Below, piece after piece: positions 3,490 through 40,218 of a DNA stretch of 64,000 nt. Source of the stretch: an uncultured Gammaproteobacteria bacterium (GTDB lineage: Bacteria; Patescibacteriota; Patescibacteriia; Magasanikbacterales; GWA2-37-8). Both the position numbers and the translations under genes were made by a program. Location of the stretch: the NCBI GenBank assembly GCA_964496095.1, contig CAZBWU010000004.1, positions 21,366 to 85,365 of the forward strand, written 5' to 3'. Under the pieces are notes generated by a model. The model ran no database searches. It was given only the letters and a program-made list of their open reading frames with translations, and had not been told where the DNA came from. The first letter of the stretch is position 1, and every line of letters starts with the position of its first letter.

Positions 3490-5289
3490 ATGAAAAAGAT
3501 TTTAAACCAGAAAGGTTTTACTCTGCTCGAAGTCGTAGTGGCCAGCGGAATTTTTTTGATTTTTGCGCTGGGGATTTATGGGGGAGTTAACTTAACTTTT
3601 AAAATTGTTTATCAGTCGCGCATGAAAATTTTGGAAACTGCTATTTTGGCTGAGCGGCTAGAAGTTGCGCGCAATCTGCCTTATGATCAAGTGGGGATTA
3701 TAAATGGTGTGCCAAGCGGTTTGTTACCTTCCTCTACTACCACTGTTCGTAATGGCCAAACATTTATCCTGGTGACTACAGTGAGAAATATAGATGATGC
3801 TTTTGATGGTACCTTGGGAGGAACACCAAACGATTTATCTCCCGCTGACTATAAATTGGTAGAGATATCAGCAATATGTAATAACTGTTTTCAAAAGACG
3901 CCAGTTATTTTGAGCACTGTAGTTGCGCCCAAACAACTTGAGGGAGCTAGTCAGAACGGTGCTTTGTTTATTCAAGTATTTGATTATAATGGCTTGCCTG
4001 TAGTAGGTGCTAGTGTGAGTGTTACAAACACTTCCAAGAACCCTAGTACTATCATTAGTGATGTCACCGACAGTAGTGGCTATTTGCGAATTGTAGATGC
4101 CCCGACTGGCACCTTGAGCTACAATATTAATGTTAGTAAATCTGGTTATTCAAGTGATTATACAATACCAGTTAGTTTATCTGTGCCAACCCCGGCTAAA
4201 CCCCCAGCCAACGTAGTCGGTCAAACAATTACTGATATTAGTTTTGCTATAGACAAACTAAGTAACCTGGATTTGCATTTTCTTACTCCCGCTTGTGTGG
4301 CTGTGCCAAATCAATCTTTTAATATTCATGGTGAAAAAATCATTGGCACCGATGCTAGTGATGTAAATATTTATAAGTACAACAAAAGTTTGACTGCTAA
4401 CGGTAGTGGAAATTATAGTTTTCCAAATTTTGAATGGGATAAATATCATGTTGCTATTAGTGGGGTTGTCTACAATATTGGTGGATCCACTCCGCTTCTT
4501 CCGTTTGATATTACTCCAGGCCTTACTCAAGATGCGTCTGTTATCCTAGAGCCATACTCAGCTAATTCTTTGCTTGTAAAAGTAAAAGACGCTGGTACGG
4601 GCTTACCGCTTTCTGACGCCACCATACATCTGACCGCCACTGGTTATGACGAAACTAGACTTACGGGTTATGGCTATGTGCGCCAGACAGATTGGAGTGG
4701 AGGTAGTGGTCAGGCAAGTTATTCCAATCAGACAAAATATTTTGCTGATAATGGAAATATAAAAAATAATTTACCAGCCGGAGATTTAAAATTAAAAAAA
4801 GTTGGTAATTCATATTTGAATAGCGGTACGTTAGAATCTTCCACTTTTGATCTTGGTACTACCGCCAATTTTAATAATATTATTTTCTCACCGTTATCTC
4901 AACCGGCGCAAACGGGTGTTAATCCTATTACATTTCAACTGGCTACTAGTAATTCTAGCAGTCTGGCTAGTTGGACATATAAAGGGCCAGATGGCACTGT
5001 TAATACATACTATACAGCTACCAGCACTATTATCTGGAGCGGAAATAACGATAATCGCTATTTGAGGTATAAGGTATTTTTAAATACTGCTAATACTGCT
5101 TTTACTCCTACTCTATCTGAAGTGGCTTTTACATATATTACTAGTTGTATACCTCCGGGGCAGAAATTTTTTAGTGGGCTATCTGCAGCAACTTATACGT
5201 TGGATGTCTCCCGTTCAGGCTATACAACCAATAATGGTACGGTAGATGTTTCTGGCGCTACCGAAGCGGTCGTAAATCTTTCTCCCTAG
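3490..5289 (+). CDS. Large type-IV-pilin-like (pseudopilin) protein with prepilin-type N-terminal cleavage/methylation domain
   Basis: N-terminus KGFTLLEVVVASGIFLIFALGIYGG matches class III signal (G/FTLxE + hydrophobic helix). Long Ser/Thr/Asn/Gly-rich beta-rich ectodomain. Confidence 0.7.
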   Translation: MKKILNQKGFTLLEVVVASGIFLIFALGIYGGVNLTFKIVYQSRMKILETAILAERLEVARNLPYDQVGIINGVPSGLLPSSTTTVRNGQTFILVTTVRNIDDAFDGTLGGTPNDLSPADYKLVEISAICNNCFQKTPVILSTVVAPKQLEGASQNGALFIQVFDYNGLPVVGASVSVTNTSKNPSTIISDVTDSSGYLRIVDAPTGTLSYNINVSKSGYSSDYTIPVSLSVPTPAKPPANVVGQTITDISFAIDKLSNLDLHFLTPACVAVPNQSFNIHGEKIIGTDASDVNIYKYNKSLTANGSGNYSFPNFEWDKYHVAISGVVYNIGGSTPLLPFDITPGLTQDASVILEPYSANSLLVKVKDAGTGLPLSDATIHLTATGYDETRLTGYGYVRQTDWSGGSGQASYSNQTKYFADNGNIKNNLPAGDLKLKKVGNSYLNSGTLESSTFDLGTTANFNNIIFSPLSQPAQTGVNPITFQLATSNSSSLASWTYKGPDGTVNTYYTATSTIIWSGNNDNRYLRYKVFLNTANTAFTPTLSEVAFTYITSCIPPGQKFFSGLSAATYTLDVSRSGYTTNNGTVDVSGATEAVVNLSP

Positions 5290-5293
5290 GAGT

Positions 5294-5911
5294 ATGTATT
5301 TGGTAGATAATTTAAAAAATAATAATAAAGGTATAACGCTAGTTGAACTATTGGTAGCTACGGGCATTTTTGTATTTTTAGCTGCCGGAATTGTGTCTCT
5401 TTATTTGACTAGTCGAAAATATAACGACATTGTTTGGGAGCAGTTAAAAACTCAGAATGAAGGCAGAAAAGTAGTGCAAGATTTTACCAATGAACTTCGT
5501 ATTGCTTCACAATCAAGTGTCGGTGCTTATCCTGTAGCGGGAGCGTCTAGTACTGAAATTATTTTTTATACCAATCTTGATAGTGATACTTTGATGGAAA
5601 GAGTGAGGTATTTTTTTTCAGGTAGAATTTTAAAAAAAGGCGTTATTAAGCCAACGGGCAATCCGCTTATCTATAATTCGGTGAATGAAGTTATTACCGA
5701 AGTGGCCCACGATGTAGTCACGTCCACTTCAAAGTTATTATATTATGATTCTAATTTTACAGGCTCAGAAACTCATTTAGTTAGCCCAATAAGCGTTACT
5801 AGTATTAGGGTGGTTGGTATTCAGCTAACATTGGAGGAAGACCCAAATGCATCACCTGTGCCGTTTTTTATAGAATCAAAAGTAATGCTGCGAAACTTGA
5901 AGGACAACTAG
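5294..5911 (+). CDS. Type-IV-pilin-like (minor pilin/pseudopilin) protein
   Basis: N-terminus KGITLVELLVATGIFVFLAAGIVSLY is a prepilin-type methylation motif. Confidence 0.65.
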   Translation: MYLVDNLKNNNKGITLVELLVATGIFVFLAAGIVSLYLTSRKYNDIVWEQLKTQNEGRKVVQDFTNELRIASQSSVGAYPVAGASSTEIIFYTNLDSDTLMERVRYFFSGRILKKGVIKPTGNPLIYNSVNEVITEVAHDVVTSTSKLLYYDSNFTGSETHLVSPISVTSIRVVGIQLTLEEDPNASPVPFFIESKVMLRNLKDN

Positions 5912-5920
5912 GTTATTTTT

Positions 5921-7318
5921 ATGATATTAGAAAATTTTAAAAATTTAATAAAAACTTTTTCTCAAAACACACGTGGAAATATTTTGTTGTTTGTTATGAT
6001 TTTTGGCACGATTAGTTTGTCTATTATTATCATCGGTGTTTCTGGTTATGCTATTTCTGAAAACTCAGCCTCTAATAGGAAACATAATAGTGAAATGGCC
6101 TTGCAAATTGCCGATGCTGGAATTAATTATTATCGTTGGCATTTAGCTCATAATAAGACCGATTATTATGACGGTAATAGTTCTAGTACGCCTGGGCCAT
6201 ATGTACATAGTTACACAGATAAGTTAGGTAATGTTATTGGTCATTTCTCTTTAGAGATTACTCCGCCTACTTTAGGTTCCAGTATTATTATTATTGAATC
6301 TACAGGTTGGCTGGATGCCCAGCCAAATAGTCGTGTAAAAATAAAGGCCAGAGTTGGTTTTCCAGCTTTGACTGATTATTCATTTTTGACAGCCACTGAT
6401 GTTTGGATTGGAGATACTGAAACTACTCATGGTAAATTTCATGCCAACGGTGGTATTAGGTTTGATGGTATCACAGACGCGCCTATTACCAGCGCTATGG
6501 CAACTTACACTTGTAAAGTTAGTCATGGTTGTGGAAACCAAACTAAATCTGGAATTTGGGGTACAGGCGGGCCAAACACTTATTGGAGTTACCCTCAGCC
6601 AGCCAAAGATTTTACTGCGATTACAGGGGTATTGGCTCAGATTGAAGATAACGCTAATCCCGATAACGGGGGGTTAAAGTTTACTTCTTCAGGTCAACAG
6701 GGTTGGCGTCTTAAATTTACTTCTTCTAGCCAGTTTGTTGCCTACAAAGTTTTGACTACAGATTGTTATAAAGCCAAAGATATAGGGGATAATAACTATT
6801 TTTGGCCATGTATTGATATTAAAACTACTGACGCCGGCACTACCTATGATTTACCAAGCAATGGTTTTATTTTTGTTGATGATAATGTTTGGGTTGATGG
6901 GGTGGTGCATGGTCGAGTCACCGTAGGTACTTCAGTTGGTAAGTCTATTATTATAAATGGAAATATTACTTATTATGCCAAAGATGGTACTGATGTGCTT
7001 GGGCTTATGGCTGAGCAAAATATTCTTATCCCGCACAACTCCCCCGACAGCCTAGAAGTTGACGGGGCGCTACTTGCCAAGAGCGGAGCTGCAAAAAGAT
7101 ATTATTATCCAAGTGATAAAAAAACGAGTTTGCTCATCTATGGTTCTATTATTACCTACAAAACTTGGACTTGGAGTTGGTCTTCTGGAGGGGGAGTTAT
7201 TATATCTGGCTATGTAAATACCGACGCTACCTATGATGCTAATCTTACTTATGGTCCGCCACCAGGTTTTCCAGTAGGTTCTGAATATAACCTATTGAGT
7301 TGGGAAGTTTTAAAATAA
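5921..7318 (+). CDS. Hypothetical membrane-anchored protein in the pilin cluster (PilX-like minor pilin candidate)
   Basis: Single N-terminal TM (ILLFVMIFGTISLSIIIIGVSGYAI), large Gly/Thr-rich ectodomain, directly downstream of two prepilin genes. Confidence 0.4.
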   Translation: MILENFKNLIKTFSQNTRGNILLFVMIFGTISLSIIIIGVSGYAISENSASNRKHNSEMALQIADAGINYYRWHLAHNKTDYYDGNSSSTPGPYVHSYTDKLGNVIGHFSLEITPPTLGSSIIIIESTGWLDAQPNSRVKIKARVGFPALTDYSFLTATDVWIGDTETTHGKFHANGGIRFDGITDAPITSAMATYTCKVSHGCGNQTKSGIWGTGGPNTYWSYPQPAKDFTAITGVLAQIEDNANPDNGGLKFTSSGQQGWRLKFTSSSQFVAYKVLTTDCYKAKDIGDNNYFWPCIDIKTTDAGTTYDLPSNGFIFVDDNVWVDGVVHGRVTVGTSVGKSIIINGNITYYAKDGTDVLGLMAEQNILIPHNSPDSLEVDGALLAKSGAAKRYYYPSDKKTSLLIYGSIITYKTWTWSWSSGGGVIISGYVNTDATYDANLTYGPPPGFPVGSEYNLLSWEVLK

Positions 7319-7399: not shown

Positions 7400-8266
7400 A
7401 TGTCTTCAATTCGTAAACTCGTTATTCCGGTTGCAGGTCTTGGTACAAGATTTTTACCTGCTACCAAAGCTCAGCCAAAAGAAATGTTACCAGTCGTTGA
7501 TAAACCCATTATTCAGTATGTGGTAGAGGATGCTGTAAAGTCAGGTATCACCGATATTATTTTAGTTACTGGTCCAAGCAAGCGCGCGGTTGAGGATCAT
7601 TTTAGCCCCAATTATGAATTGGTTAATTTGTTAAAAAAACAAGGCAAAGAAGATGTAGCTGAAGCAATCAAAAAGATTGCCGATATGGCCAATTTTATCT
7701 TTGTTAGGCAAAAAGGACCTTATGGAAATGGTACACCGGTGTTATGCGCCAAAAATATAGTCGGAGATGAACCCTTTGCGGTAATGTGGGGCGACGAATT
7801 CTTTTATACACCAAAGAAACCGCAACTTCAGCAGTTGATTGAGGTTTATGAAAAATATGGAGACCCGGTTTTGACTACTTATAAAGTAAGTGATGAAGAT
7901 ACCAAGAAGTACGGCATTATTGACGCGCTTCAAGTCGAAGACGGTGTGTTCAAAGTTAAAAAAATTGTAGAAAAACCAGGTCCAGAAAAAGCTCCATCCC
8001 GACTAGCTAGTTTGGGTGGTTTTATTTTTACCCCAGATATATTTGAAGCCTTAGAAAAAACTAAAATTGGCAAAGGTGGGGAGCTGTGGTTGGCAGATGC
8101 AAATGAAAAAGTTCTCAAAAAGAGGTCGATTTATGCTTGCTTAATCGAAGGTACCTATTACGACACTGGTTCCAAACTTGGTTATCTTAAGGCAAATGTT
8201 GATTTTGCTTTGCGCGATAAGAATTTATCAAAAGACTTTAGAGATTATTTGAAGAGTGTGGTATAA
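7400..8266 (+). CDS. galU: UTP--glucose-1-phosphate uridylyltransferase. The likely start is the in-frame ATG at about 7400 (MSSIRK); the track ORF begins at 7340.
   Basis: [40 protein letters not shown] is the canonical GalU N-terminus. Confidence 0.85.
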   Translation: [288 protein letters not shown]

Positions 8267-8366: not shown

Positions 8367-9740
8367 ATGAAAAAAAGAATATTCTTTTTTCTCGCGCTGG
8401 CCATGGCATTGCCCCTGGCTGGTTTGGGTTGTAAAGGTTTGTCTGCCCAGCAACAGGCAGCGATTGCGCCTGTCACCTTGGAATACTGGACTGTCTTTGA
8501 TGATGTGGATGCTTTGCAAGCACAGATAGATAAGTATAAAGCAGACAGGCCATATCTAACAATCAATTTAAAACAACTTCGTTTGGATGAGCTGTACCCT
8601 CGTTTGTTAGAAGCCCTGGCAGAGGATCGTGGTCCGGATATTATCTCTGTGCGCAATCGTTTCATGAATTTTTATAAGCCAAAACTGGCCACCATGCCTG
8701 ACAGTGTTTCTGATACAACCGTGCTAGTAGAAAAAACTAACTTTAACACCAAGACAACTGTCACTACTGTGAAGCAAAATTTGCCAAGCTTAACTCAGGT
8801 AGATAAAGAGTATGTCCAATCAGTAGGTAAAGACGTCGTTATTGAGGGTAAAATTTATGGCTTGCCATTGTCTTTGGATAATTTGGCACTATATTATAAT
8901 AAAGACCTGTTGGATCGCGCTGGTATTGCCGAGCCACCAAAAAATTGGGATGATTTTCAAAAAGATGTAAAAAAACTCGCTAAATTTGATAAAAATTTTA
9001 CTAAAATTTTACAGTCAGGAGCAGCGATTGGTACAGGGAATAATATTCCTGGTTTTGATGATCTGCTTTATATTCTCTTCAAACAAAGTAATATTAGTTT
9101 TGTAAATAAAAATGGACAAGCAGTGTTTAATAATCCCGGAAATAACGAAGCCAATCCAGCAATGTCCGTTATGAATTTCTATACCGATTTTGCCAATTCG
9201 GAGCGAGATACTTATACTTGGAACGAAGATATGGACAATGCTGTAGATAAATTTGTAAATGGTTCTCTCGCGTTTTTCTTTGGATATAGTTATCATTTGC
9301 CAGTTATAAAATCTCGAGCTCCTCAGCTCAATTTTTCTATATTACCAATGTTGCAACTTAACCCCGAACAGCCAGTAAACGTGGCTAATTATTGGGTACA
9401 GTCTGTGGTAGATAAATCAAAACATAAAAATGAATCCTGGGGTTTGGTTAATTATTTGACTCATTCCAAAGCCACTAAAGAATATTTAGAAATATCGAAC
9501 CGACCTTCAGCCCTACGAGCCTATATTAGTGGTCAATTAGAAAATGTTGAGCTATATCCGTTTGCTTCCCAGAGCCTAATTGCCGATAGTTGGTATAAGG
9601 GGAAGGATTATGACACGACTGTAAAAGCTCTCAAAGATATGGCTCACGAATGGCTATTACCAGCGCCAGTTGGTCAGGAGTTAAGACAAAAGCAGGAAGT
9701 GCTAAATAGGGCTGCAGCTAAAATAAATCAAACTTTATGA
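8367..9740 (+). CDS. Lipoprotein, extracellular solute-binding protein (ABC sugar-type, family 1); no permease adjacent
   Basis: Signal peptide with lipobox (LAGLGCKG) and a MalE-like SBP core (YGLPLSLDNLALYYNKDLL). Its stop overlaps the start of the first pilin-like gene (ATGA). Confidence 0.55.
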   Translation: MKKRIFFFLALAMALPLAGLGCKGLSAQQQAAIAPVTLEYWTVFDDVDALQAQIDKYKADRPYLTINLKQLRLDELYPRLLEALAEDRGPDIISVRNRFMNFYKPKLATMPDSVSDTTVLVEKTNFNTKTTVTTVKQNLPSLTQVDKEYVQSVGKDVVIEGKIYGLPLSLDNLALYYNKDLLDRAGIAEPPKNWDDFQKDVKKLAKFDKNFTKILQSGAAIGTGNNIPGFDDLLYILFKQSNISFVNKNGQAVFNNPGNNEANPAMSVMNFYTDFANSERDTYTWNEDMDNAVDKFVNGSLAFFFGYSYHLPVIKSRAPQLNFSILPMLQLNPEQPVNVANYWVQSVVDKSKHKNESWGLVNYLTHSKATKEYLEISNRPSALRAYISGQLENVELYPFASQSLIADSWYKGKDYDTTVKALKDMAHEWLLPAPVGQELRQKQEVLNRAAAKINQTL

Positions 9741-10177
9741 GTAGGTTTGTAAAAATAGTAGTGTCATTTTTAATTATAATTTCGGCGTTTTTTAATGTTA
9801 CCCAAGTCTTTGCCCAAGGAGTCGATGGTAAAGACTCTTCTTTGGTTGGTAAATTTATTCCAAAATGTGTTATAGATCCACCCACTGGAAATCCTGCAGA
9901 TGAAGGTCAATGTCGTAGTATTAGTATTTTTGTTATTTTACTTTTAAATGTTGCAAATTATTTATTTAGTATTGTGGGCGCGCTGGCTTTATTATTTTTT
10001 GTTTATGGTGGTTTTACCCTTATTTTATCTAGAGGAAATTCTGAACAAACTGGGAAAGGTGTAGAGATAATAACAGCCGCTGTTATTGGGTTAGTGGTAG
10101 TTTTTGGTGCCTATATGTTGGTGCGTTTCTTAGGAGAGGCTATAGGATTAAAGAGTGAATTTATTCTTAATCCTTGA
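9737..10177 (+). CDS. VirB2/TrbC-like pilin-family protein (array member 1)
   Basis: Signal peptide, short Cys-containing ectodomain, then TM-GGFTLILSRGNSEQTGKG-TM core shared with downstream paralogs. Confidence 0.55.
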   Translation: MSRFVKIVVSFLIIISAFFNVTQVFAQGVDGKDSSLVGKFIPKCVIDPPTGNPADEGQCRSISIFVILLLNVANYLFSIVGALALLFFVYGGFTLILSRGNSEQTGKGVEIITAAVIGLVVVFGAYMLVRFLGEAIGLKSEFILNP

Positions 10178-10181
10178 TTTT

Positions 10182-10973
10182 ATGAAGGGTTTAAGAAAGA
10201 AAAATATTTTAGTTAGTTTGTTATTACTATTTGTGGTATTTGTATTTATACCTACTAACGAAGCTTTAGCCGCAAAATGGGGTTGTTTAGACCCGAGCGG
10301 GGAGTGTATAGAAATAGAATCGGAAGATAGTACGAAAGCCGCTTTTGGTTGTAATGAAAAATGTGGTCAAGATTGCGCAATGTCTCGTAGATTAGGGGGC
10401 TGTCCTGTATTTGGTTGTATTCAAAAAAGAAGATGTGAGGATAAACCAGCTGCTTTTTATGGTGATTATTCTAGAAAAAGTTGTCCGGATAGGCCCCTTG
10501 CTTTTCCTTGTCCGTCACCAAGAGATTGGGGTTGTTTTGAAGCTGAAAAATGCCATAATGTTGTAGCTAAGATTTATGAAGAGGCACAGGATTTATGTCC
10601 CAACGGTAAAGCTACCCAAGATTCTTGTGGAGACGAAATGTCACTATCGAGCACTCTTAAAGAAAAGTACGGGCCCTTGGCAGGTACTAGTTTGATAGAT
10701 CTGCAAAAAAAAGCTGCTAAACAGTTAAACCCGGGGAATATTAGTGAACCAAAAAAACTTATTTCTCGCGCCATTAATTTAATGACCGCCTTTATCGGTT
10801 CTATTGCCTTGCTTTTGTATGTAGTGGCTGGATTTTTGTGGATGACGGCTAGTGGCGCTAGTGAGCAAGTGGATAAAGCTAAAAAAATATTGGTTTGGAC
10901 TACTTTAGGTGTGCTGGTCATGTTGTTTAGTTATATCTTAACAAATACATTTTTTGAACTTATTCCAAAGTAG
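10182..10973 (+). CDS. VirB2/TrbC-like pilin-family protein with large Cys-rich N-terminal ectodomain (array member 2). The track ORF 10155.. starts with GTG; the ATG at about 10182 (MKGLRKK) gives a clean signal peptide.
   Basis: C-terminal core LLLYVVAGFLWMTASGASEQVDKAKKILVWTTLGVLVMLFSYIL; about 16 Cys in the ectodomain. Confidence 0.55.
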   Translation: MKGLRKKNILVSLLLLFVVFVFIPTNEALAAKWGCLDPSGECIEIESEDSTKAAFGCNEKCGQDCAMSRRLGGCPVFGCIQKRRCEDKPAAFYGDYSRKSCPDRPLAFPCPSPRDWGCFEAEKCHNVVAKIYEEAQDLCPNGKATQDSCGDEMSLSSTLKEKYGPLAGTSLIDLQKKAAKQLNPGNISEPKKLISRAINLMTAFIGSIALLLYVVAGFLWMTASGASEQVDKAKKILVWTTLGVLVMLFSYILTNTFFELIPK

Positions 10974-10987
10974 GAAGATAAGCAAGT

Positions 10988-11488
10988 ATGAAAAAAATAT
11001 TTTTAGTATCTATTTTAGCTCTGACTTTTATTTTTAGTATGACGACGAGTCAAGTAAATGCGCAAACTGGTACACATCAATCCCTCGCGTTTATTGGTGA
11101 TTTTATTGATCAGGCAGGTGAGTTGCTTATTGATCAATTGCCTACACCAGATTCGTCACTACAACCTTCAACTACAGGCGATGGTAATCAATCCGGCTGC
11201 ACCTTTAACGGCCAAGGGGAAGAAAAATGCCAATTAGAAAATCCGATTGGAGCAACAGAAGTACCTGCTTTAATTAAACAAGTTATTACAGTCGCCTTGG
11301 GGGTTATAGGGTCTTTTACCTTGTTAATGCTAGTTTGGGGAGGCTTACAATGGCTAACTTCGGCAGGCAATCCTGAAAAAGTCAGCGCTGGTACTCAGAC
11401 AATGGTTTGGGCAGTAATTGGTGTTATGGTTGTGTTTGCCAGTTATGTATTATTATCCACTTTCTTGAATATTTTTGTTGGTGGATAA
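10988..11488 (+). CDS. VirB2/TrbC-like pilin-family protein (array member 3)
   Basis: Signal peptide (…SQVNA), Cys pair in ectodomain, core LMLVWGGLQWLTSAGNPEKVSAGTQTMVWAVIGVMVVF. Confidence 0.55.
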   Translation: MKKIFLVSILALTFIFSMTTSQVNAQTGTHQSLAFIGDFIDQAGELLIDQLPTPDSSLQPSTTGDGNQSGCTFNGQGEEKCQLENPIGATEVPALIKQVITVALGVIGSFTLLMLVWGGLQWLTSAGNPEKVSAGTQTMVWAVIGVMVVFASYVLLSTFLNIFVGG

Positions 11489-11587
11489 ATTGGGAAATGA
11501 TAAAAAATATGGTATAATATTTGAAGTTAAATATTTTAGATTTCCTAGTTTGAAACGTATGATTTTATATAGAAAGGGGGTGAAAAT

Positions 11588-11977
11588 ATGATGAAATTGA
11601 AAAAAATATTTGCTATTTTTGCTATGGCTTTAGTGATGGTATCTGCAACTCCAGTATTGGTAAGTGCTGATATTGGATCAGAAGCTGATCCGTTGGGTTT
11701 AAACCCAGTAGCTGCTACTGGTCTTGGTAAAAAAGATATTCGCGTAACAATAGCAAGTATCATTAAAACTGCAATGGGATTACTTGGTATCGTTGCTGTA
11801 GTTATTATCCTTATCGGTGGTTTTAAATGGATGACAGCTGGTGGAAGTGAAGAAGGTGCTGATGAAGGTAAAAAATATATCTTCTCAGGTATTATTGGTT
11901 TGGCCATCATTTTGTCGGCCTACGCTCTCGCTACTTATGTTATCAATAGCTTGATTCAAGCCACAACCGGCGTTTAG
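11588..11977 (+). CDS. VirB2/TrbC-like pilin-family protein (array member 4)
   Basis: Signal peptide, core IILIGGFKWMTAGGSEEGADEGKKYIFSGIIGLAIILSAYAL; RBS GGGGGTG upstream. Confidence 0.55.
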   Translation: MMKLKKIFAIFAMALVMVSATPVLVSADIGSEADPLGLNPVAATGLGKKDIRVTIASIIKTAMGLLGIVAVVIILIGGFKWMTAGGSEEGADEGKKYIFSGIIGLAIILSAYALATYVINSLIQATTGV

Positions 11978-12093
11978 TTCTTTAAACAGAGAATAAGAGG
12001 CGCGTTTGATCTGTTTGCTTTCCTAAGTAAACATTTCCCATGGGAATCAGACGCGCCATCCTCTGTTAAAATATACCTGTCAATTCGACCAAA

Positions 12094-12168
12094 GTGGAGG
12101 AATACCTTAAACATAGTGTTTGCAAAAACCAAGTTTAAGGCATCCCTCGGCTACGCTCGGGATGACAA
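12094..12168 (+). repeat. Dispersed palindromic repeat, family A (copy 1)
   Basis: GTGGAGGAATACCTTAAACATAGTGTTTGCAAAAACCAAGTTTAAGGCATCCCTCGGCTACGCTCGGGATGACAAAC is near-identical to 49595-49672. Confidence 0.6.
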
Positions 12169-12190
12169 ACGTTTTTCAATAAAGTGTATG

Positions 12191-12802
12191 TTTAAAAAAA
12201 CATTTTTGATTTTAGCTTTACTGGGTTTTATAACACCCGTTTTTGTTTTTGCAGATAAGTATGGTATAGACAAAGCTGCTAACGGAACAGACTTGATTCA
12301 AAGCTCTCTGTCTGTGCCTGAATTAATCGGAAGTGTTATTGGGACCGCCCTATCATTTGTCGGTATAATATTTTTCCTTTTGATTTTATATGCTGGTTTT
12401 CTGTGGATGACCGCATTTGGTAATGATGAAAAAGTGACAAGTGCAAAAAGTATTATGGAGCACGCGATTTTGGGTTTGATCATAGTTCTTTCTGCTTATG
12501 CTATTTCTAAATTTGTATTTAGTAATCTGCCAGGTGGTGGTGGGCAAACAACTCCAGCTAGCGCTAAGGGCTGTTGTGTTAATCCAGCAACCGGTGGTCA
12601 GATAGAGAATTTAGAATCGCAGTGTGTTCCTAACGCCCAAAATCCTAGAACATGGAAGGCCGGACCGTGTGTTGTTGGTTGTTGCTATGTAACAGTGCCT
12701 CCCGCAGACTGTGAGCCAAGAGCGATGGGCCAAGCAGAATGTCAATTGTGGGGTAATAGAGGTAGTTGGCAACAGGGGGCTTGTGCAAATTCCTGTCCTT
12801 AA
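12191..12802 (+). CDS. VirB2/TrbC-like pilin-family protein with Cys-rich C-terminal extension (array member 5). The likely start is about 12191 (MFKKTFLILALLGF); the track ORF 12116.. runs through an upstream repeat element.
   Basis: Core LILYAGFLWMTAFGNDEKVTSAKSIMEHAILGLIIVLSAYAI, followed by a C-terminal tail of about 90 aa with about 12 Cys. Confidence 0.5.
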   Translation, partial: FKKTFLILALLGFITPVFVFADKYGIDKAANGTDLIQSSLSVPELIGSVIGTALSFVGIIFFLLILYAGFLWMTAFGNDEKVTSAKSIMEHAILGLIIVLSAYAISKFVFSNLPGGGGQTTPASAKGCCVNPATGGQIENLESQCVPNAQNPRTWKAGPCVVGCCYVTVPPADCEPRAMGQAECQLWGNRGSWQQGACANSCP

Positions 12803-12823
12803 TTTTAAATAAGTTGATGTATT

Positions 12824-13198
12824 ATGAAAAAAATAATCATACCTGTGATAATAATTGGTATATTTTCATTAGTAGTTTTTGCCTCAGCCCAGGGTTTGCA
12901 AGGCGCTAGCGGAATGTTGGAAAAAGTTGGTGGTGCAAATGGTGAGAATATCGGTGTAACAGGGGATCTGCCTACAGCTATATCAACAGTAATTAAAGCC
13001 GTTCTATCTTTAGTGGGGACTATATTTTTGGTTTTGACTATCTATGCAGGTATTATGTGGATGACAGCTGCTGGGGATGAAGAAAAAGTTACAAAAGCAA
13101 CCTCAATTATAAGGATGGCAGTGATTGGTTTGGTAATAGTGATGTCTGCTTATGCTATTACTTACTTTGTGACAAGTAAGTTGGGCGCTTTAAAATAA
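12824..13198 (+). CDS. VirB2/TrbC-like pilin-family protein (array member 6)
   Basis: Core TIYAGIMWMTAAGDEEKVTKATSIIRMAVIGLVIVMSAYAI; near-identical core to member 7. Confidence 0.6.
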   Translation: MKKIIIPVIIIGIFSLVVFASAQGLQGASGMLEKVGGANGENIGVTGDLPTAISTVIKAVLSLVGTIFLVLTIYAGIMWMTAAGDEEKVTKATSIIRMAVIGLVIVMSAYAITYFVTSKLGALK

Positions 13199-13245
13199 AA
13201 TTAATATATGGGCTTAAAGCTCGTATAGTCTCATTCGTTTCGATT

Positions 13246-13620
13246 ATGAAAAAATACTTTTTAGCATTTTTGGTAAGTATAAGTTTGTTTGGAGGTTTAG
13301 TTGTGCCTGTTTTAGCTCAAACTGAACCTGATTTGTCTGTTCAGGTTGCTGAAAAAAGCGGTTATGGTCAAAATGGTGCACCTAATATATCTGAAACTGT
13401 TGGTAGAATAATTAGAATAATCTTAGGATTACTCGGTACTATATTTTTAGGCCTGACCGTATACGCAGGCGTGCTGTGGATGACAGCTGCTGGGGATGAA
13501 GAAAAAGTTACAAAAGCAACTGGAATAATAAGAATGGCAGTAATCGGCCTAATTGTTATTTTGGCTTCTTATAGTCTTAGTTATTTTGTTTTGGATAAAA
13601 TTTTTGAAGCCACATTATAA
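13246..13620 (+). CDS. VirB2/TrbC-like pilin-family protein (array member 7)
   Basis: Core TVYAGVLWMTAAGDEEKVTKATGIIRMAVIGLIVILASYSL. Confidence 0.6.
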   Translation: MKKYFLAFLVSISLFGGLVVPVLAQTEPDLSVQVAEKSGYGQNGAPNISETVGRIIRIILGLLGTIFLGLTVYAGVLWMTAAGDEEKVTKATGIIRMAVIGLIVILASYSLSYFVLDKIFEATL

Positions 13621-13625
13621 AATGT

Positions 13626-14105
13626 ATGAATAATCATAAAAACATTTCTCTAAAAATATTTTTAACACTTTTATTTTTTTCTTCTATTTTTTGTTCTCTT
13701 GTTCCCGGTTCAGTTTTGGCTGCCACTTCTTCGATTCGTGAAGATGCTTTTAGCCAGTTAAATTCTGCCGCCGGTACTGGTGGTGCTGATTTTGGTGCGT
13801 ATAAAGACCCTCGCGAAACAGCCGCAAAAATTATTAAGATAGCCCTTGAGTTAGTAGGGACAATTTTTATTGCGTTGGCAGTTTATGCGGGTTTTTTATG
13901 GATGACAGCTGGGGGCGGGGAAGAAAATATTGCAAAAGCTACCGGTATTTTAAGGATGGCAGTTATAGGGTTGATTATTATTTTGACAGCATATGCCCTT
14001 ACCGTTTTTGTTTTTGAGAGTCTTTTAAGAAGCACTTCAGACAATAATAACGTGACTGATATTTGTCCGGAGAACAACCCAGCTGACCCAAATTGCGCAC
14101 TATAA
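13626..14105 (+). CDS. VirB2/TrbC-like pilin-family protein with short Cys-pair C-tail (array member 8)
   Basis: Core AVYAGFLWMTAGGGEENIAKATGILRMAVIGLIIILTAYAL; C-terminal ...CPENNPADPNCAL. Confidence 0.6.
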   Translation: MNNHKNISLKIFLTLLFFSSIFCSLVPGSVLAATSSIREDAFSQLNSAAGTGGADFGAYKDPRETAAKIIKIALELVGTIFIALAVYAGFLWMTAGGGEENIAKATGILRMAVIGLIIILTAYALTVFVFESLLRSTSDNNNVTDICPENNPADPNCAL

Positions 14106-14111
14106 TAGGTC

Positions 14112-15188
14112 TTACTTTTGTGTAAAAATTCTATCCAAAATAATCTTACTTGCATCTGGGTAAGATTTTTTGGTTATGGAGATAAGATTGGCTAAAATAT
14201 TTTGCACTTTTAATGCAACGTCTTTGGCTGAATGAGCCTTGATTCCATAATGATTTAGTTCTAAGAATGTGGTGTTGTAGTCTTCTTGGCCAGGTATTGG
14301 GTTTATAACAATAATTGGCTTTTGCAAGTACATGGCTTCGGTAATTGTGAGCCCCCCAGCTTTACTAATGATTATATCTGAAACCCTCATCCATTCATCT
14401 ATATTATTTGTTCTATCTATAATCAATAAGTTTTCTGGAGTAGGCGTTTTTATTTTTTTTATAAGTTTATTTTTGTCGCCAATAATAATGAGGTTGATTT
14501 TTCTATCTGGATAATTAGAAAAAACCTCGTTTATAATATCTTCTGGTTTTATTTTTGCATGGGCTGTGGGCAGTAGTAAAATTACTGGCCAATTATTTTT
14601 AAGACCAAGTATAATTTTCAATTCACTAATATTTTTGACTTTCAAAAATTCCGGATTAATGGGGATGCCACTGGCAATGGAGTCTATATTTAATTTGGCT
14701 AGACTATTTTGGATTTCTTCAGTGGCTACAAAGGTGTATCTAATTTTGGTAGATAACCAAGTTTTGTGTGGATGATAATCAGTAATAATAGTATCGATAG
14801 GGGTAGGTAAATTTTTTGGAATGATGGTTTGAGCCAGATAATGTGTTGAAATTATAAAATCAGGCTTAAATTCGTATATTTTTTGTATAAATTTTCTACC
14901 ACCGAAGCTAATAAGCGGTGTTAAATTTTTAAATATTTTTTGAATCAGCCAAGTATCTGTAATTTCGTAGATTATTTTATATAAAAATGGTATGTAGTTG
15001 GTAATAAAATCATATGAATAAATAATTCCCGTATACGGAAACCAGCCTAGGTAGCTTGCAATATCCAGATGTAGAACAGTAATATTTGGATAATTTTTTT
15101 CACAACTAAGCCGAAGAGCTTCGGCTGCTCTAACATGTCCTGTTCCAGTCGAGCATGACAAGATTAGTAATTTTTTATTTGGGGTCAT
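14112..15188 (-). CDS. Glycosyltransferase family 28 (MGDG-synthase/MurG-like diacylglycerol or lipid glycosyltransferase)
   Basis: N-terminal LILSCSTGTGHVRAAEAL and C-terminal ISKAGGLTITEAMYLQKPIIVINPIPGQE resemble the GT28 MGDG synthase/UgtP fold. Confidence 0.6.
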   Translation of the reverse strand: MTPNKKLLILSCSTGTGHVRAAEALRLSCEKNYPNITVLHLDIASYLGWFPYTGIIYSYDFITNYIPFLYKIIYEITDTWLIQKIFKNLTPLISFGGRKFIQKIYEFKPDFIISTHYLAQTIIPKNLPTPIDTIITDYHPHKTWLSTKIRYTFVATEEIQNSLAKLNIDSIASGIPINPEFLKVKNISELKIILGLKNNWPVILLLPTAHAKIKPEDIINEVFSNYPDRKINLIIIGDKNKLIKKIKTPTPENLLIIDRTNNIDEWMRVSDIIISKAGGLTITEAMYLQKPIIVINPIPGQEDYNTTFLELNHYGIKAHSAKDVALKVQNILANLISITKKSYPDASKIILDRIFTQK

Positions 15189-15264
15189 AATTCTAGGGAA
15201 GAGTCAAAAAGAAAGCTCGTTTTCTTTTTGTGAAGTCCGACGAATTAAAAGCTTTGTTTCTAAT

Positions 15265-15340
15265 TGGGGTGGCCTACGGGAGTTGAACCCGTGTTGCGAG
15301 ATCCACAATCTCACGTAATAACCGTTATACCAAGGCCACC
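15265..15340 (-). tRNA. tRNA-His (anticodon GTG)
   Basis: Minus-strand sequence GGTGGCC...anticodon loop TTGTGGA...GGGTTCAACTCCCGT...GGCCACC-CCA. Confidence 0.75.
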
Positions 15341-15352
15341 ATATTATTCCTC

Positions 15353-15427
15353 TGGTGTCTCCAGTAGGAATCGAACCTACACATCCAGCTTAGAAGGCTA
15401 GTGTCCTATCCATTAAACGATGGAGAC
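15353..15427 (-). tRNA. tRNA-Arg (anticodon TCT)
   Basis: Minus-strand GTCTCCA...anticodon loop CTTCTAA...GTAGGTTCGATTCCTAC...TGGAGAC-A. Confidence 0.75.
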
Positions 15428-15522
15428 AAAATAAATAAAGCAAAATTATTCTACCTTATTTTTACAGATTAATCAAGGTGTGATAATATATCATCATAAA
15501 TTTGGTATTTAACTAGTTTTGT

Positions 15523-15876
15523 ATGTTTAAAAAGGTGTTTCTTGTTTTCTTGTTTTCTTTAGCAATGTTATGTTCTGTGGCTCCTGTTTTTGCTCAAGAT
15601 TTTGGTTTACAAGCCACAGCTGAGAAAGCTCAGTATGGTGAAACAACCGACATTTATTCAATGATTGGCACAATTTTGCGTTTAGGGCTCTCGGCAATAG
15701 GTATAATTTTTTTAGCCGTGATGTTTTATGCAGGAATGCGTTGGATGACAGCTCGCGGCAATGAAGAATTTGCTACCAAGGCCAAAGAGGCTATGTTTGC
15801 TGCTATGATGGGCTTTTTCTTGGTTGTTGCTGCTTATGGCCTCACCCTCTTTGTTTTTAGTAAGTTGGTAAAATAA
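15523..15876 (+). CDS. VirB2/TrbC-like pilin-family protein (array member 9, separated from the array by the glycosyltransferase and two tRNAs)
   Basis: Signal peptide, core VMFYAGMRWMTARGNEEFATKAKEAMFAAMMGFFLVVAAYGL. Confidence 0.55.
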   Translation: MFKKVFLVFLFSLAMLCSVAPVFAQDFGLQATAEKAQYGETTDIYSMIGTILRLGLSAIGIIFLAVMFYAGMRWMTARGNEEFATKAKEAMFAAMMGFFLVVAAYGLTLFVFSKLVK

Positions 15877-24594: not shown

Positions 24595-27850
<3,256 letters not shown>

Positions 27851-27944
27851 GTGCTTTGATTCTAGAAGTCTTCGTCTGATTTCTAGAAAGACCCTGTTAT
27901 TGTTGGATCAATGAATTGAATTTTTAAAATAAAAAGACCATTTT

Positions 27945-28053
27945 CTTGGTGACATGAGCGATTGGGTCACACCTGTTCCCATCCCGAACACAGAAGTTAA
28001 GCCAATCAGCGCCGATGATAGCCGCAAGGCAAAAGTAGGCCGTCGCCAGGACA
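27945..28053 (+). rRNA. rrf: 5S ribosomal RNA
   Basis: CCCATCCCGAACACAGAAGTTAAGC core with terminal helix CTTGGTGAC/GTCGCCAGG. Flanked by the inverted repeat AAAAAGACCATT...AATGGTCTTTTTTT, which serves as processing stem and terminator. Confidence 0.85.
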
Positions 28054-37181: not shown

Positions 37182-38330
37182 ATGAATTTATACGAATTTG
37201 AAGGGAAAAATTTATTTGCCAAGCATGGTGTAGCTACTCCGAAAGGGGTGGTAGTTTGGCGCGGGGATGATATCAAAAGTAAATACCACGAACTAGGAGT
37301 TTCTAGCGTCGTGGTGAAAGCTCAGATTTTGGCAGGCAAACGTGGTAAGAATAATGGTATCAAGTTTTGCGCTAGCTCTGAAGAAGTGGAAACTGCTGTT
37401 ACAGAACTTTTTAGTGGTAATATCAAAGGCCAATATGTAGAAGCGGTTTTGATTGAAGAAAAATTGGATATTGCCGAAGAGCATTATATTTCTATTACTT
37501 ACGATACTATTACTAAACAGCCAATTTTAATTTACAGTTCGCAAGGTGGAATGGATATAGAAGATGTAGCTGAAGATAAAATAACTAAAAAGTTGTTAGA
37601 TATAAGAAGCGAAGTTATTGTTTCAGGCTTGCCATGCGCAGAAAAATTATGGCAATGTTTTTTGCAAGAAGACGCACGTGTGGTAGAAATAAATCCACTT
37701 GTTAAAACAAAAGATGGGGAGTGGTTTGCGGCTGATGCCAAAATTGCTTTGGATGACGATGCTTTTTATCGCCATGAAGAATGGAATAGTTTGGCGCCAC
37801 GCACCATGATGGGGCGCCTGCCTACCGAAAGAGAATTATCCGCCAAAAAAATAGATGAGGGCGAAGCCTATTATCGTGGTACGGCTGGCAAGTATATTGA
37901 AATGGATGGAGATATTGCAGTTATTTTAAATGGTGGTGGTGCTAGTATCGCCAATATGGACGCACTTATAGGTGTTGGTCTCAAGCCGGCAAATTATACT
38001 GAGTATTCTGGTAATCCTCCGCGTGAAAAAGTTTATGCTTTGGCCAAAGTGGTTTTGTCCAAACCTGGTATTCGTGGGCTCTGGATGGCAGGAGTAGTCG
38101 CCAACTTTACCAACATTAAAGAAACATTTTTAGGTATTATTGATGCTTTGGATGAAATTAAACCCACCTATCCAATCGTAGTTCGTCGTGACGGTACAGA
38201 GAGCGCTGAAGCTTTTAGGCTTTTGGCAGAATGCGCCGAGCGTAATCATTTAAATATTAAAATGTTTAAAAAAGAAATCGGTATGAGCGCCACCGCTCAG
38301 ATTTTGGCTGATATGGTTAGTAAAAATTAA
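37182..38330 (+). CDS. ATP-grasp beta subunit of a succinyl-CoA-synthetase-like ligase (SucC/CcsA/AclB family)
   Basis: MNLYEFEGKNLFAKHGVATPKG...VVVKAQILAGKRGK matches the SucC N-terminus. Confidence 0.75.
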   Translation: MNLYEFEGKNLFAKHGVATPKGVVVWRGDDIKSKYHELGVSSVVVKAQILAGKRGKNNGIKFCASSEEVETAVTELFSGNIKGQYVEAVLIEEKLDIAEEHYISITYDTITKQPILIYSSQGGMDIEDVAEDKITKKLLDIRSEVIVSGLPCAEKLWQCFLQEDARVVEINPLVKTKDGEWFAADAKIALDDDAFYRHEEWNSLAPRTMMGRLPTERELSAKKIDEGEAYYRGTAGKYIEMDGDIAVILNGGGASIANMDALIGVGLKPANYTEYSGNPPREKVYALAKVVLSKPGIRGLWMAGVVANFTNIKETFLGIIDALDEIKPTYPIVVRRDGTESAEAFRLLAECAERNHLNIKMFKKEIGMSATAQILADMVSKN

Positions 38331-38334
38331 TCAT

Positions 38335-38589
38335 ATGTCATGGCAGGATATCGTTCTTACCCTCACTAGCGTCGCTTTTTGTGTGTCGCTGATGCCACAG
38401 GCTATCCAGGGGTTTAGAGAGAAGAGAGGGCCGATTACATTGCAAACTTCAATCCCGACATTTATCGGTTTGTATATTACGTCTGCAGTTTATTTTTCCC
38501 TATCATTTTATTTTGCGACGGTAACGTGTTTTATTACCGGTACAATATGGCTTATTTTATTTATTCAGCGAGTGATCTATAAAAAGTAG
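38335..38589 (+). CDS. 3-TM PQ-loop (semiSWEET-like) small membrane protein
   Basis: 84 aa with three predicted TM helices and a PQ motif in TM1 (VSLMPQAIQGF), as in bacterial semiSWEET sugar transporters. Confidence 0.4.
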   Translation: MSWQDIVLTLTSVAFCVSLMPQAIQGFREKRGPITLQTSIPTFIGLYITSAVYFSLSFYFATVTCFITGTIWLILFIQRVIYKK

Positions 38590-38591
38590 AT

Positions 38592-39479
38592 ATGAGCATT
38601 TTAATATCCCAAAATACAAAAGTATTGGTGCAAGGCATTACCGGTAAAGAAGGTGCTAAAGGCGCTAAGGCTATGTTAGATTATGGCACCAATGTCCTTT
38701 GTGGTGTCACGCCAAAAAAAGGTGGACAAGAGGTAGAAGGCAAACCAGTTTTTAATTCTATTGCTGAAGCTTTTGCTCAGTTCCCAGAGATAAATACATC
38801 GGTTGTATATGTGCCTCCTTTTGCTGCGAAGGCCGCCATTCTTGAGGCAATTGAAAGTGGTATAAGTCTAATCAATGTTTTTGTAGAACGAATACCAATT
38901 AAGGATACAGCCTATTGTCTGGCAGTGGCCAAAGAAAAAAATATTCAAATCTTGGGACCTAGTTCTCTGGGTTTAGTTGTTCCTGGTATTGGTCGCTTGG
39001 GAGTGATGGGTGGTCCACTGGTAAATGAAATTTTTAAACCGGGTTCAATTGGCGTTATCTCTCGTTCTGGTGGAATGAGTAACGAACTATCATGGCAACT
39101 CTCTCAAAACGGTTTAGGTCAAAGCGCTACCGTGCATGTTGGGGGAGATTTACTAATGGGTACCACTTATGCGGACTTGTTAAAATTATTTGAAAAAGAT
39201 GAGCAGACAAAAGGGGTGGTAATTTTTGGAGAACATGGCGGTGGCTTTGAGTTTGAGATAGTTGATTTAATCAATAATAAAGAATATACTAAACCATTGG
39301 CTATCTATATCGGCGGTAAGTTTGCCAATGTTTTCCCCGAAGGCGCTAATATTGGCCATGCTGGGGCTATTGTGGGCCGTGGTCAGAGCGCAGAGGAAAA
39401 AGAAGTAGCCCTGTTAGCCGTGGGAGTCCAAATCGCAGATAAGTACGAAGACTTGGCAATACTAGCTAAATCATTTTAA
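38592..39479 (+). CDS. CoA-binding alpha subunit of a succinyl-CoA-synthetase-like ligase (SucD/CcsB/AclA-N family)
   Basis: NTKVLVQGITGKEGAKGAKAMLDYGTNVLCGVTPKKGG and the phospho-His region SRSGGMSNE...G.GH. Confidence 0.8.
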   Translation: MSILISQNTKVLVQGITGKEGAKGAKAMLDYGTNVLCGVTPKKGGQEVEGKPVFNSIAEAFAQFPEINTSVVYVPPFAAKAAILEAIESGISLINVFVERIPIKDTAYCLAVAKEKNIQILGPSSLGLVVPGIGRLGVMGGPLVNEIFKPGSIGVISRSGGMSNELSWQLSQNGLGQSATVHVGGDLLMGTTYADLLKLFEKDEQTKGVVIFGEHGGGFEFEIVDLINNKEYTKPLAIYIGGKFANVFPEGANIGHAGAIVGRGQSAEEKEVALLAVGVQIADKYEDLAILAKSF

Positions 39480-39489
39480 ATTACAGACT

Positions 39490-40218
39490 ATGCAATGGAA
39501 AACAGCTATTACAAATGTAAACAACGGGCAAGAAATAATCCGTGGTCAAAGTCATGATAAATTAGCGCTTGAAAAAAGCTTTACCGATGTAATTTTTTTG
39601 ATTTTAAAAGAAGTTTTACCGACCGAAAAAGAAGCAAGAATGATGAATACGATACTTGTGGAAATGATAGATCATGGTCCGGGTACTCCTTCGGCTCTTG
39701 CTGCTCGTATTGTTGCTTCCACAAGCACAAGTCTTTACAGCTCAGTCGCAGCTGGATTAATAGGTCTTGGTGGTATTCGACATGGTGGGGCGTTGGGAAG
39801 CGCAGCCAAGTTTTTTGTTGAAAATATTAATATAAACGACTTACCAGGATTACTCGCTGAACTGAAATCCAAAAAAATCTATGTCCCTGGATTTGGTCAT
39901 AAAGTTTTAAAAGTAGATAACCGTGCAGAAACATTATTAAAAGTGGCAAAAGAAAATGGTTTTTTTGGTAAGTATAGCGAGTTTGCTGTTAAAGTTAAAG
40001 AAGAAATAAATAAAACTTCTTCAAAACCATTGCCATTAAATATGGATGGCGCTAATGCGGCCATTTTATTGGATATGGGTTTTAGTCAGAAATTGATCGA
40101 CGGATTTTTTATTATCGCCCGTACGCCTGGGCTCGTAGCTCATGCGGTAGAGGAAGTCGAGTCGGGTGAAGGTTTGCGACGACTTGATGAAAAAGATATT
40201 GAATATATTGGTAAATAA
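39490..40218 (+). CDS. Short citrate-synthase-fold protein (citryl-CoA-lyase-like; resembles AclA C-terminal domain)
   Basis: 242 aa. Citrate-synthase catalytic motifs retained: GGIRHGGA (His), PGFGHKV (His), NMDGANAAILLDMGF (Asp region). Confidence 0.55.
   Translation: MQWKTAITNVNNGQEIIRGQSHDKLALEKSFTDVIFLILKEVLPTEKEARMMNTILVEMIDHGPGTPSALAARIVASTSTSLYSSVAAGLIGLGGIRHGGALGSAAKFFVENININDLPGLLAELKSKKIYVPGFGHKVLKVDNRAETLLKVAKENGFFGKYSEFAVKVKEEINKTSSKPLPLNMDGANAAILLDMGFSQKLIDGFFIIARTPGLVAHAVEEVESGEGLRRLDEKDIEYIGK

Follow-up and report, generated by a model that had tools for sequence, protein, structure and literature searches.

We analysed a 64,000-nt stretch of Patescibacterial DNA (hereafter the window; contig CAZBWU010000004.1 of assembly GCA_964496095.1, positions 21,366 to 85,365), in which nine small paralogous genes on the + strand form an array of predicted pilins. 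Eight of them run without a break at 9737-14105, and the ninth lies apart at 15523-15876; the open reading frame (ORF) listing places a glycosyltransferase (GT) gene and two tRNA genes, all on the - strand, between genes 8 and 9. The proteins match a family of type IV secretion system (T4SS) pilins, PF18895, and are kept as positional orthologues in about 50 related genomes. We consider it reasonably probable that they build a heteromeric T4SS-type pilus or stalk, of which gene 4 would provide the bulk and the other eight genes decorated minor subunits for host contact.

Family membership and shared architecture

The family matches, together with the ORF listing, bear out the 8+1 set of paralogous small genes that a preliminary description of this DNA had reported (Table 1). 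PF18895 was matched by all nine proteins (E 1.7e-11 to 2.5e-5). Eight of them reached the Pfam gathering score of 26.6 bits, at 28.1-44.5 bits, while gene 2 scored 24.7 bits (E 2.5e-5). A locally built family profile hidden Markov model found exactly these nine genes in the 64 kb and no more, gene 2 included. Pairwise identity among the nine proteins averages 25% and does not exceed 51%. On the sequence evidence, we regard the PF18895 membership of the array proteins as firm. When 1.84 billion cluster representatives (50% identity clusters) were searched with the profile, 69,747 family members came up; this number and earlier reports (PMC12102498, PMC10633639, PMC12857230) accord with the claimed expansion of the family in bacteria of the candidate phyla radiation (CPR).

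Table 1. Features of the array and its surroundings, with window coordinates
Feature	Position	Strand	Remarks
Three type IV pilus-like (prepilin-type) genes	3490-7318	+	Upstream of GalU
GalU (UTP-glucose-1-phosphate uridylyltransferase)	7400-8266	+	TIGR01099 330.8 bits, cut-off 326.8
Lipoprotein solute-binding protein (SBP), carbohydrate type	8367-9740	+	Pfam SBP_bac_1, SBP_bac_8
Pilin-like gene 1	9737-10177	+	146 aa; PF18895 E 4e-10
Pilin-like gene 2	10182-10973	+	263 aa; PF18895 24.7 bits; alternative possible start GTG 10155
Pilin-like gene 3	10988-11488	+	166 aa; PF18895 E 5e-10
Promoter-like site before gene 4	11490-11518	+	TTGGGA, 17 nt, TG-extended TATAAT
Pilin-like gene 4	11588-11977	+	129 aa; bare, Cys-free; PF18895 E 2.6e-10
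Strong RNA hairpin directly after gene 4	11985-12067	+	Terminator, attenuator or 3' stabiliser
Pilin-like gene 5	12188-12802	+	204 aa; PF18895 E 3e-7; alternative possible start GTG 12116
Pilin-like gene 6	12824-13198	+	124 aa; PF18895 E 1.7e-11
Pilin-like gene 7	13246-13620	+	124 aa; PF18895 E 1.4e-10
Pilin-like gene 8	13626-14105	+	159 aa; PF18895 E 7e-8
GT28-type glycolipid synthase-like glycosyltransferase	14112-15188	-	MGDG_synth + Glyco_tran_28_C
tRNA-His(GTG), tRNA-Arg(TCT)	15265-15427	-	ARAGORN, Rfam; not part of the system
Pilin-like gene 9	15523-15876	+	117 aa, detached member; PF18895 28.1 bits; own promoter-like site at 15461-15489 (pattern scan)

A conserved loop, Y(A/G)GxxWMT(A/S)xGx(E/D)E(K/Q)(V/I)xKA, joins the two transmembrane (TM) helices of the array proteins. 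In 716 relatives conservation is strong (G32 99%, W35 87%, M36 75%, T37 78%, A/S38 100%, G40 98%, G58 99%, Y66 91%). The motif described earlier is homologous across the nine proteins, but two of them depart from it as it was written, namely gene 1 (GGFTLILSRGNSEQ), whose atypical loop lacks WMT, and gene 3 (QWLTSAGNPEK). A resemblance of this kind might in principle be compositional, arising among unrelated small hydrophobic proteins, given that TM helices inflate scores and fold searches are non-specific. We rejected such an artefact as barely conceivable because of near-invariant residues that are not hydrophobic (G, W, T, G, E, K, G and Y, in the 716 sequences), the Pfam E-values down to 1e-11 and the 1:1 orthologues in other genomes; the motif is shared by descent, as had been claimed.

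Hydropathy and inspection of cleavage sites gave the same layout for all nine proteins and in agreement with the topology first proposed: a signal peptide stands at the N-terminus, its AxA-type cleavage site usually has Q or D after it, and two more hydrophobic helices come behind. The AlphaFold2 (AF2) model of gene 6 is a helical hairpin (H49-81 and H86-122; predicted local distance difference test, pLDDT, ~90). Outside this hairpin, the exposed parts differ fully between paralogues, as the preliminary description had it, although they are C-terminal as well as N-terminal. Small disulfide-rich modules sit at the N-terminus of genes 1-3 and at the C-terminus of genes 5 and 8. The mature proteins have cysteines only in their N-terminal ectodomains or C-terminal tails, and in even numbers (2, 14, 2, 10, 2): one pair each in the ectodomains of genes 1 and 3, 14 in the ~160-aa ectodomain of gene 2, 10 in the 98-aa tail of gene 5 and one pair in the tail of gene 8.

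The same pattern extends to relatives. In the C-terminal tails of 725 related pilin ORFs, 522 were Cys-free, 202 had an even number of cysteines and one had an odd number, and the N-terminal ectodomains showed a strong bias towards even numbers. Even counts at both ends point to disulfide-bonded, extracytoplasmic termini, and so to an N-out/C-out orientation as in VirB2-type pilins. In the AF2 model of gene 2 (pLDDT 70), three modules, each of a beta-hairpin and a helix (residues 32-61, 76-100 and 114-138), precede the membrane hairpin. A structure search found no solved fold matching these modules, and among the homologues of gene 2 both the length (147 to 378 aa) and the number of modules vary. 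One related locus (L087:1555-3777) encodes a pilin core with a C-terminal extension of more than 600 aa in an ORF that leaves the contig end; its Cys-rich stretches and its repeats, which resemble immunoglobulin (Ig)/IPT-type repeats by eye only, look adhesin-like.

Fused proteins offer a second view of the topology. Around a third of the 150 best profile hits contain two or more hairpin cores, with 2-8 cores per chain and up to 16 predicted TM helices; the best hits include the poly-pilin proteins P0281 and P0288, single polypeptides in which one signal peptide precedes 6 or 8 hairpin units. Six two-unit fusions were also found in related loci (L039:6396-7304, L044:6381-7265, L061:6793-7686, L066:2437-3276, L069:854-1594 and L072:10553-11341). 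Joining hairpins behind a single signal peptide is topologically possible only for N-out/C-out units and, by Rosetta-stone logic, such fusions indicate that different hairpins are adjacent in the final assembly.

A distant relation to VirB2 is plausible from sequence, largely on the inference of the family's curators and of the published authors. An hhalign comparison with an alignment of 32 homologues of Agrobacterium VirB2 was weak (probability 35.6%, E 3.9e-4, 67 columns), with TM1, the loop and TM2 aligned in register and WM placed on WM. The sub-threshold match of gene 4 to the TrbC model (E 5e-4) points the same way. Eight of the nine proteins had sub-threshold matches to NF045849 (E 1e-8 to 0.03), a family of pilin-like conjugal transfer proteins, all below its curated cut-off of 40 bits. 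A tblastn search of gene 4 against 72,556 plasmids returned no match, and thus no link to a cultivated conjugative element.

Ordered orthologues, strain variation and a candidate major subunit

The comparison took in a near-identical strain (L001), two more distant genomes (L005 and L007) and another 80 loci. Most of the 80 best genomic matches came from Magasanikbacteria (Magasanikiibacteriota), then from Falkow-, Uhr-, Buchanan- and Portnoybacteria, and the gene 6 homologues that carry names belong to Candidatus Magasanikbacteria and 'Parcubacteria' metagenome-assembled genomes. The region is chromosomal and comes from a Magasanikbacteria-like Patescibacterium of class ABY1, the GTDB class to which Magasanikbacteria and Falkowbacteria genomes are assigned (Table S1, PMC12102498). 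Many of the related Patescibacteria contigs are titled 'uncultured Gammaproteobacteria bacterium' in third-party annotation (TPA) records, and these labels look misassigned.

About 50 loci share one gene order: three type IV pilus-like genes, GalU, SBP, eight to twelve pilins, GT, one pilin, S15, NYN and PNPase. The detached ninth pilin before S15-NYN-PNPase is kept in relatives. Arrays that follow an SBP hold 8-15 pilin genes per locus, most commonly 9, and the range over all loci is 4-16. Genes 1-4 have unambiguous 1:1 orthologues, while genes 5-9 form a younger subgroup. For the core of gene 1, identity to the orthologue is 79% in L005 and 56% in L007, and no other paralogue exceeds 40%; for that of gene 2 it is 74% and 43% in the same two genomes, and gene 3 has positional orthologues in both. 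Architecture follows position as well: in 51 loci, N-terminal Cys ectodomains occur at positions 1-3 in 100%, 82% and 73% of cases, and C-terminal Cys tails at positions 5-8 in 43-65%. Three loci (L063, L070 and L075, at about 1.5-10 kb, the last titled Falkowbacteria) carry a shorter array of six genes without an SBP. Next to it lie dnaN, for which the Pfam scan covered L063 only, and a class A penicillin-binding protein (PBP), with dnaA likely upstream. These neighbours place the shorter array at the replication origin, as do T4SS genes described earlier (PMC12102498).

Between close strains, the array varies far more than its surroundings. Relative to L001, the flanks are 99-100% identical with a synonymous divergence (dS) of 0.01-0.04, and the array is a mosaic with dS of 0.3-1.7. 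The gene 2 ectodomain (10103-10746) is replaced in L001 by an unrelated Cys-module sequence (339 aa vs 263) on an identical core. Over 13587-14163, which takes in gene 8 and the GT gene's 3' end, DNA identity is 57-71% and dS 1.3, and blocks in genes 1, 5, 6 and 7 show dS of 0.3-0.7. The ratio of nonsynonymous to synonymous divergence (dN/dS) was computed pairwise against this sister strain, with the gene 2 ectodomain alleles unalignable and the saturated paralogue comparisons excluded; it was below 1 in every gene and region that could be aligned. Such ratios, in combination with the high dS of the array, point to recombinational import of old, divergent alleles with no detectable positive selection. 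The preliminary description had proposed diversifying selection on the exposed parts, which these data do not demonstrate; what they show is the import of divergent alleles, exchange of the whole gene 2 ectodomain and gene conversion.

It had also called genes 6 and 7 near-identical. We found 51% identity over their full length and 58% in the core, with one exact 46-nt tract common to gene 6 (13056-13101) and gene 7 (13475-13520); other pairs share no more than 15 nt. Gene 6 of L001 differs from this tract at more than 10 positions, and the gene 7 copy would be its donor or partner. We read the tract as short-tract gene conversion. As far as the alignments reveal, close strains differ mainly by recombination within the array, by allele replacement together with such conversion.

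Allele replacement and gene conversion at the strain level, and exposed parts that are wholly different between paralogues, are also what one would expect of an antigenic or phase-variation repertoire, the driver suggested in the preliminary description, in which nine interchangeable versions would be under positive selection with one or a few used at once. An analogy exists in the VirB2 paralogue families of Bartonella and Anaplasma (PMC12102498). We nevertheless judge this explanation very unlikely. In about 50 genomes the paralogues recur as old positional orthologues, in one fixed order and with position-specific architecture, a pattern that nine non-redundant subunits fit better than interchangeable antigenic variants. 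Junctions of 3-12 nt imply co-transcription, and dN/dS stays below 1 wherever it could be computed. No obvious switching element appeared in the promoter and terminator scan, the spacer fold or Rfam, none of which was aimed specifically at inverted repeats or silent cassettes, and no recombinase domain was found among the Pfam-scanned ORFs of the window. Finally, the array pilins of Southlakia are all individually essential (PMC10633639).

Among the nine, gene 4 is set apart in several ways. It is the most conserved member, with a core 78-83% identical to orthologues and at most 44% identical to other paralogues, and throughout 51 loci the pilins at position 4 are short and poor in cysteine. 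Spacers of ~90 nt flank it, against 3-12 nt at the other array junctions, and the spacer before it (~91 nt) is kept in the 51 loci. The promoter-like site in this spacer, a pattern match from a consensus scan, agrees with the consensus at 10 of 12 positions and adds the TG extension. The 90 nt after the gene 4 stop fold with a minimum free energy (MFE) of -36.3 kcal/mol, and the whole spacer has z = -5.8. In the 51 loci, the median MFE after position 4 is -33.2 kcal/mol compared with -11 to -17 after other positions, and a strong hairpin is present there in 80% of loci. A separate, stabilised or attenuated cistron for an undecorated conserved member is the arrangement expected of a major subunit. 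Gene 4, bare and most conserved, has a promoter-like site to itself and a hairpin on its 3' side that relatives retain; it is therefore likely to be that subunit, its expression being predicted from sequence signals.

The spacer between genes 4 and 5 also carries a palindromic element of ~75-90 nt (12078-12167). A second copy, 88% identical, lies at 49598-49671 and ends 10 nt before tRNA-Arg(CCG). The window holds exactly two copies, where none would be expected by chance. The element occurs in strain L001, is absent from the L005 spacer and has no Rfam match.

Genomic context and proposed assembly

The first pilin gene begins within the gene for a carbohydrate-type SBP, whose stop overlaps the gene 1 start as ATGA (9737-9740), just as first reported. 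This SBP, which has weak NCBIfam matches to GanS, UgpB and MalE, had been taken for an orphan neighbour. It is instead a conserved partner of the array: 55 related loci have it directly before pilin 1, at a median distance of 4 nt, and a lipobox-like motif is present in 50 of these 55 array-linked SBPs. Even distant lineages retain a shortened version of the gene order, GalU, SBP, array. At the other end, the unbroken run meets the GT28-type gene convergently, as had been noted; its product resembles diglucosyl-diacylglycerol synthase (150 bits, below the cut-off), and a glycolipid synthase-like GT stands at the same place in 40 related loci, in either orientation. From gene order and spacing, we take the array to be operonically coupled to the SBP and GalU and to enclose a glycolipid-synthase-like gene. 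ARAGORN and Rfam also recovered the two tRNAs said to lie between genes 8 and 9; the Rfam search of the array gave only these and a spurious sub-threshold match on their opposite strand.

For the favoured pilus or stalk, we propose the following route, by way of VirB4 extraction and filament assembly to host binding. Sec export, followed by cleavage of the signal peptide, would yield a pool of N-out/C-out membrane hairpins, which a putative VirB4-type machine encoded elsewhere in the genome would extract from the membrane. The extracted hairpins would then assemble into a heteromeric pilus or a short envelope-spanning stalk. Gene 4 would supply the bulk subunit, the other eight would be minor subunits that show different Cys-rich binding modules to host cells, and module swapping from strain to strain may tune which host surfaces are recognised. 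This reading is supported by the Southlakia precedent, by VirB4-positive relatives, by PF18895 membership, by the topology and by positional orthology. Six Magasanikbacteria genomes with an orthologous array are VirB4-positive in Table S1 of PMC12102498, and pilins were found away from virB4 in about 40% of assemblies in the same study.

Several results weigh against this proposal. The claimed VirB2/TrbC identity holds in so far as PF18895 and the two-TM hairpin are present in all nine proteins, but the cut-off of the classical TrbC/VirB2 model PF04956 (27.9 bits) was not reached by any of them; gene 4 scored best (20.6 bits, E 5e-4), and the others gave E 0.06-0.55 or no match. A PDB sequence search with the nine-protein profile also gave no match. 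F-type and T-type pilins have basic lipid-binding loops, and the hairpin loop here is acidic or neutral, unlike those. Ectodomains of at least 160 aa (more than 600 aa in relatives) would be impossible on every subunit of a tight filament. As already described, no VirB4, VirB6 or VirB11 is encoded in the window: a Pfam scan of its ORFs of at least 110 aa found none of these and no VirD4. By synteny labelling and a ten-ORF Pfam scan, no T4SS genes turned up within 10 kb of 80 related arrays, whose neighbours agree with the conserved housekeeping synteny. The ten ORFs, among the largest unassigned neighbours, had other Pfam domains (PBP1, DnaN, NusA, H+-pyrophosphatase, trigger factor, DUF2079 and acyl-CoA synthetase-like) or none, with no VirB4. 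Unlike those of the Southlakia-type locus, the array pilins of the window are neither within nor beside a virB4-virB6-virB3 cluster. Moreover, no pilus of such a type has been seen in any Patescibacterium (PMC12857230), and the literature treats one as no more than possible.

The lack of a T4SS gene near the related loci is one of the observations that would suit a different arrangement, in which the hairpins would never be extruded but would form a membrane-resident, hetero-oligomeric bundle or ring that anchors and displays the Cys-rich modules, and would work with the co-transcribed SBP as a VirB4-independent capture or uptake device. The coupling of SBP to gene 1 in 55 loci and the order GalU, SBP, array in distant lineages would be expected of such a device, chains of 6-8 fused hairpins look like a membrane bundle, and some relatives have very large adhesin-like tails. 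Fused hairpins, however, would equally fit neighbouring positions on a filament surface, and neither a permease nor an ATPase for the SBP was found among the Pfam-scanned ORFs of the window. The weak yet consistent relation to TrbC/VirB2 and to a conjugation family of integrative and conjugative elements (ICEs) also argues against a bundle, and the only members of the family studied by experiment are encoded within a T4SS cluster and, like it, are essential (PMC10633639). On balance, we hold the bundle to be unlikely, and prefer the pilus or stalk.

A further-reaching form of the pilus proposal draws on the sugar-lipid genes. Conjugative pili are protein-lipid co-polymers, and together with the retention of GalU and of a diglucosyl-diacylglycerol-synthase-like gene this would, speculatively, suggest a glycolipid partner. 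The array might then build a position-ordered, heteromeric T4SS-type pilus or stalk in a monoderm, with gene 4 as the one bare major subunit and eight decorated minor ones, co-assembled with glycolipid in place of phospholipid. It would act as a conduit for host contact and uptake, a 'feeding tube', with the SBP capturing cargo, and would be genetically uncoupled from the rest of the T4SS. We find this version quite doubtful.

The type IV pilus-like trio upstream of GalU is conserved in the Magasanikbacteria-like lineage only. Its first two genes (3490-5289 and 5294-5911) have an N_methyl motif, the second resembling the minor pilin ComGE, and the third encodes a 465-aa protein with no family match. 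Housekeeping genes of the window include S15, PNPase, TopA, DprA, Der, ThrRS and MiaA. At 24606-28051 lies a 23S rRNA gene that carries a group I intron (26704-26906), with 5S behind it and no 16S adjacent. Three adjacent genes at 37182-40218 resemble pieces of an ATP-citrate-lyase or citryl-CoA-type enzyme (ATP-grasp_2 + Citrate_bind; CoA_binding + Ligase_CoA; the C-terminal part of Citrate_synt), a trio unexpected in a genome-reduced CPR bacterium.

Comparison with known systems

The question behind such loci is how ultrasmall CPR bacteria attach to host cells and take up nutrients from them; in the only species tested, a T4SS with unusual pilin-like proteins is essential. The locus leaves the existing picture unchanged, as a clean, deeply conserved example outside Saccharibacteria. 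Its testable features, namely a candidate major subunit in gene 4, ordered minor subunits with swappable modules, a partnership with an SBP and sugar-lipid enzymes, and recombination within the array, could guide experiments on the existence, composition and binding of a possible pilus.

The closest known systems are the VirB2 arrays of Patescibacteria. Quinonero-Coronel et al. 2025 used PF04956 and PF18895 to screen 3,035 genomes of Patescibacteria. In 383 assemblies they counted 441 'VirB2 arrays', each with 2-11 pilin genes in tandem or with one non-pilin gene between, at a mean identity of 25% and a maximum of 54% (PMC12102498). They proposed, by analogy with Bartonella and Anaplasma, that the variability aids adaptation to host strains. 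Wang et al. 2023 found a series of predicted pilins in the T4SS cluster SEML1_0006-0019 of Ca. Southlakia epibionticum to be essential (PMC10633639). The array of the window falls within the published definition, with at least two highly divergent pilin genes in an interrupted tandem. In common with those arrays, with Southlakia and with the TM7x 'Sec secreted array', it is built of PF18895 proteins in tandem or near-tandem, is chromosomal and has no relaxase; its mean and maximum identities (25%/51%) resemble the published ones (25%/54%), and the proposed role in host interaction is the same. It differs from Southlakia-type arrays in lying outside a T4SS cluster, being fixed in place by GalU and SBP, and enclosing a GT gene. 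It also belongs to class ABY1, whereas arrays were reported as most abundant in Saccharimonadia and Microgenomatia, and loci related to it reach 12-16 members against the published 2-11.

The conjugative VirB2/TrbC pilins (Agrobacterium VirB2, RP4 TrbC, F TraA) resemble the array proteins in their cleaved signal peptide, two helices, short loop and external position of both ends, and the 'WM' at the end of helix 1 aligns with that of VirB2. The window array differs by not reaching PF04956, by its acidic or neutral loop and long disulfide-rich extensions, and by having nine paralogues instead of one gene, without linkage to virB3, virB4 or virB6. To our knowledge, the classical T4SSs of monoderms lack VirB2, and the organism of the window is a monoderm. 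The VirB2 expansions of Bartonella and Anaplasma likewise consist of divergent tandem paralogues whose variation presumably serves host interaction or immune evasion (PMC12102498). Those belong to PF04956, occur in diderms and lie within or beside virB operons, whereas the window has ordered orthologues with distinct architectures. The NF045849 Mbov_0395 family of Mycoplasma ICEs shares the small two-helix protein and the monoderm T4SS context, but its members are single-copy and adjoin VirB4 and VirD4 homologues. Since the array fits the published description of VirB2 arrays exactly, both the kind of system and the interpretation given in the preliminary description are already in the literature, and the comparative details, namely the conservation of the 8+1 layout, the coupling to SBP and GalU, gene 4 and the strain mosaic, are incremental additions to that known picture.

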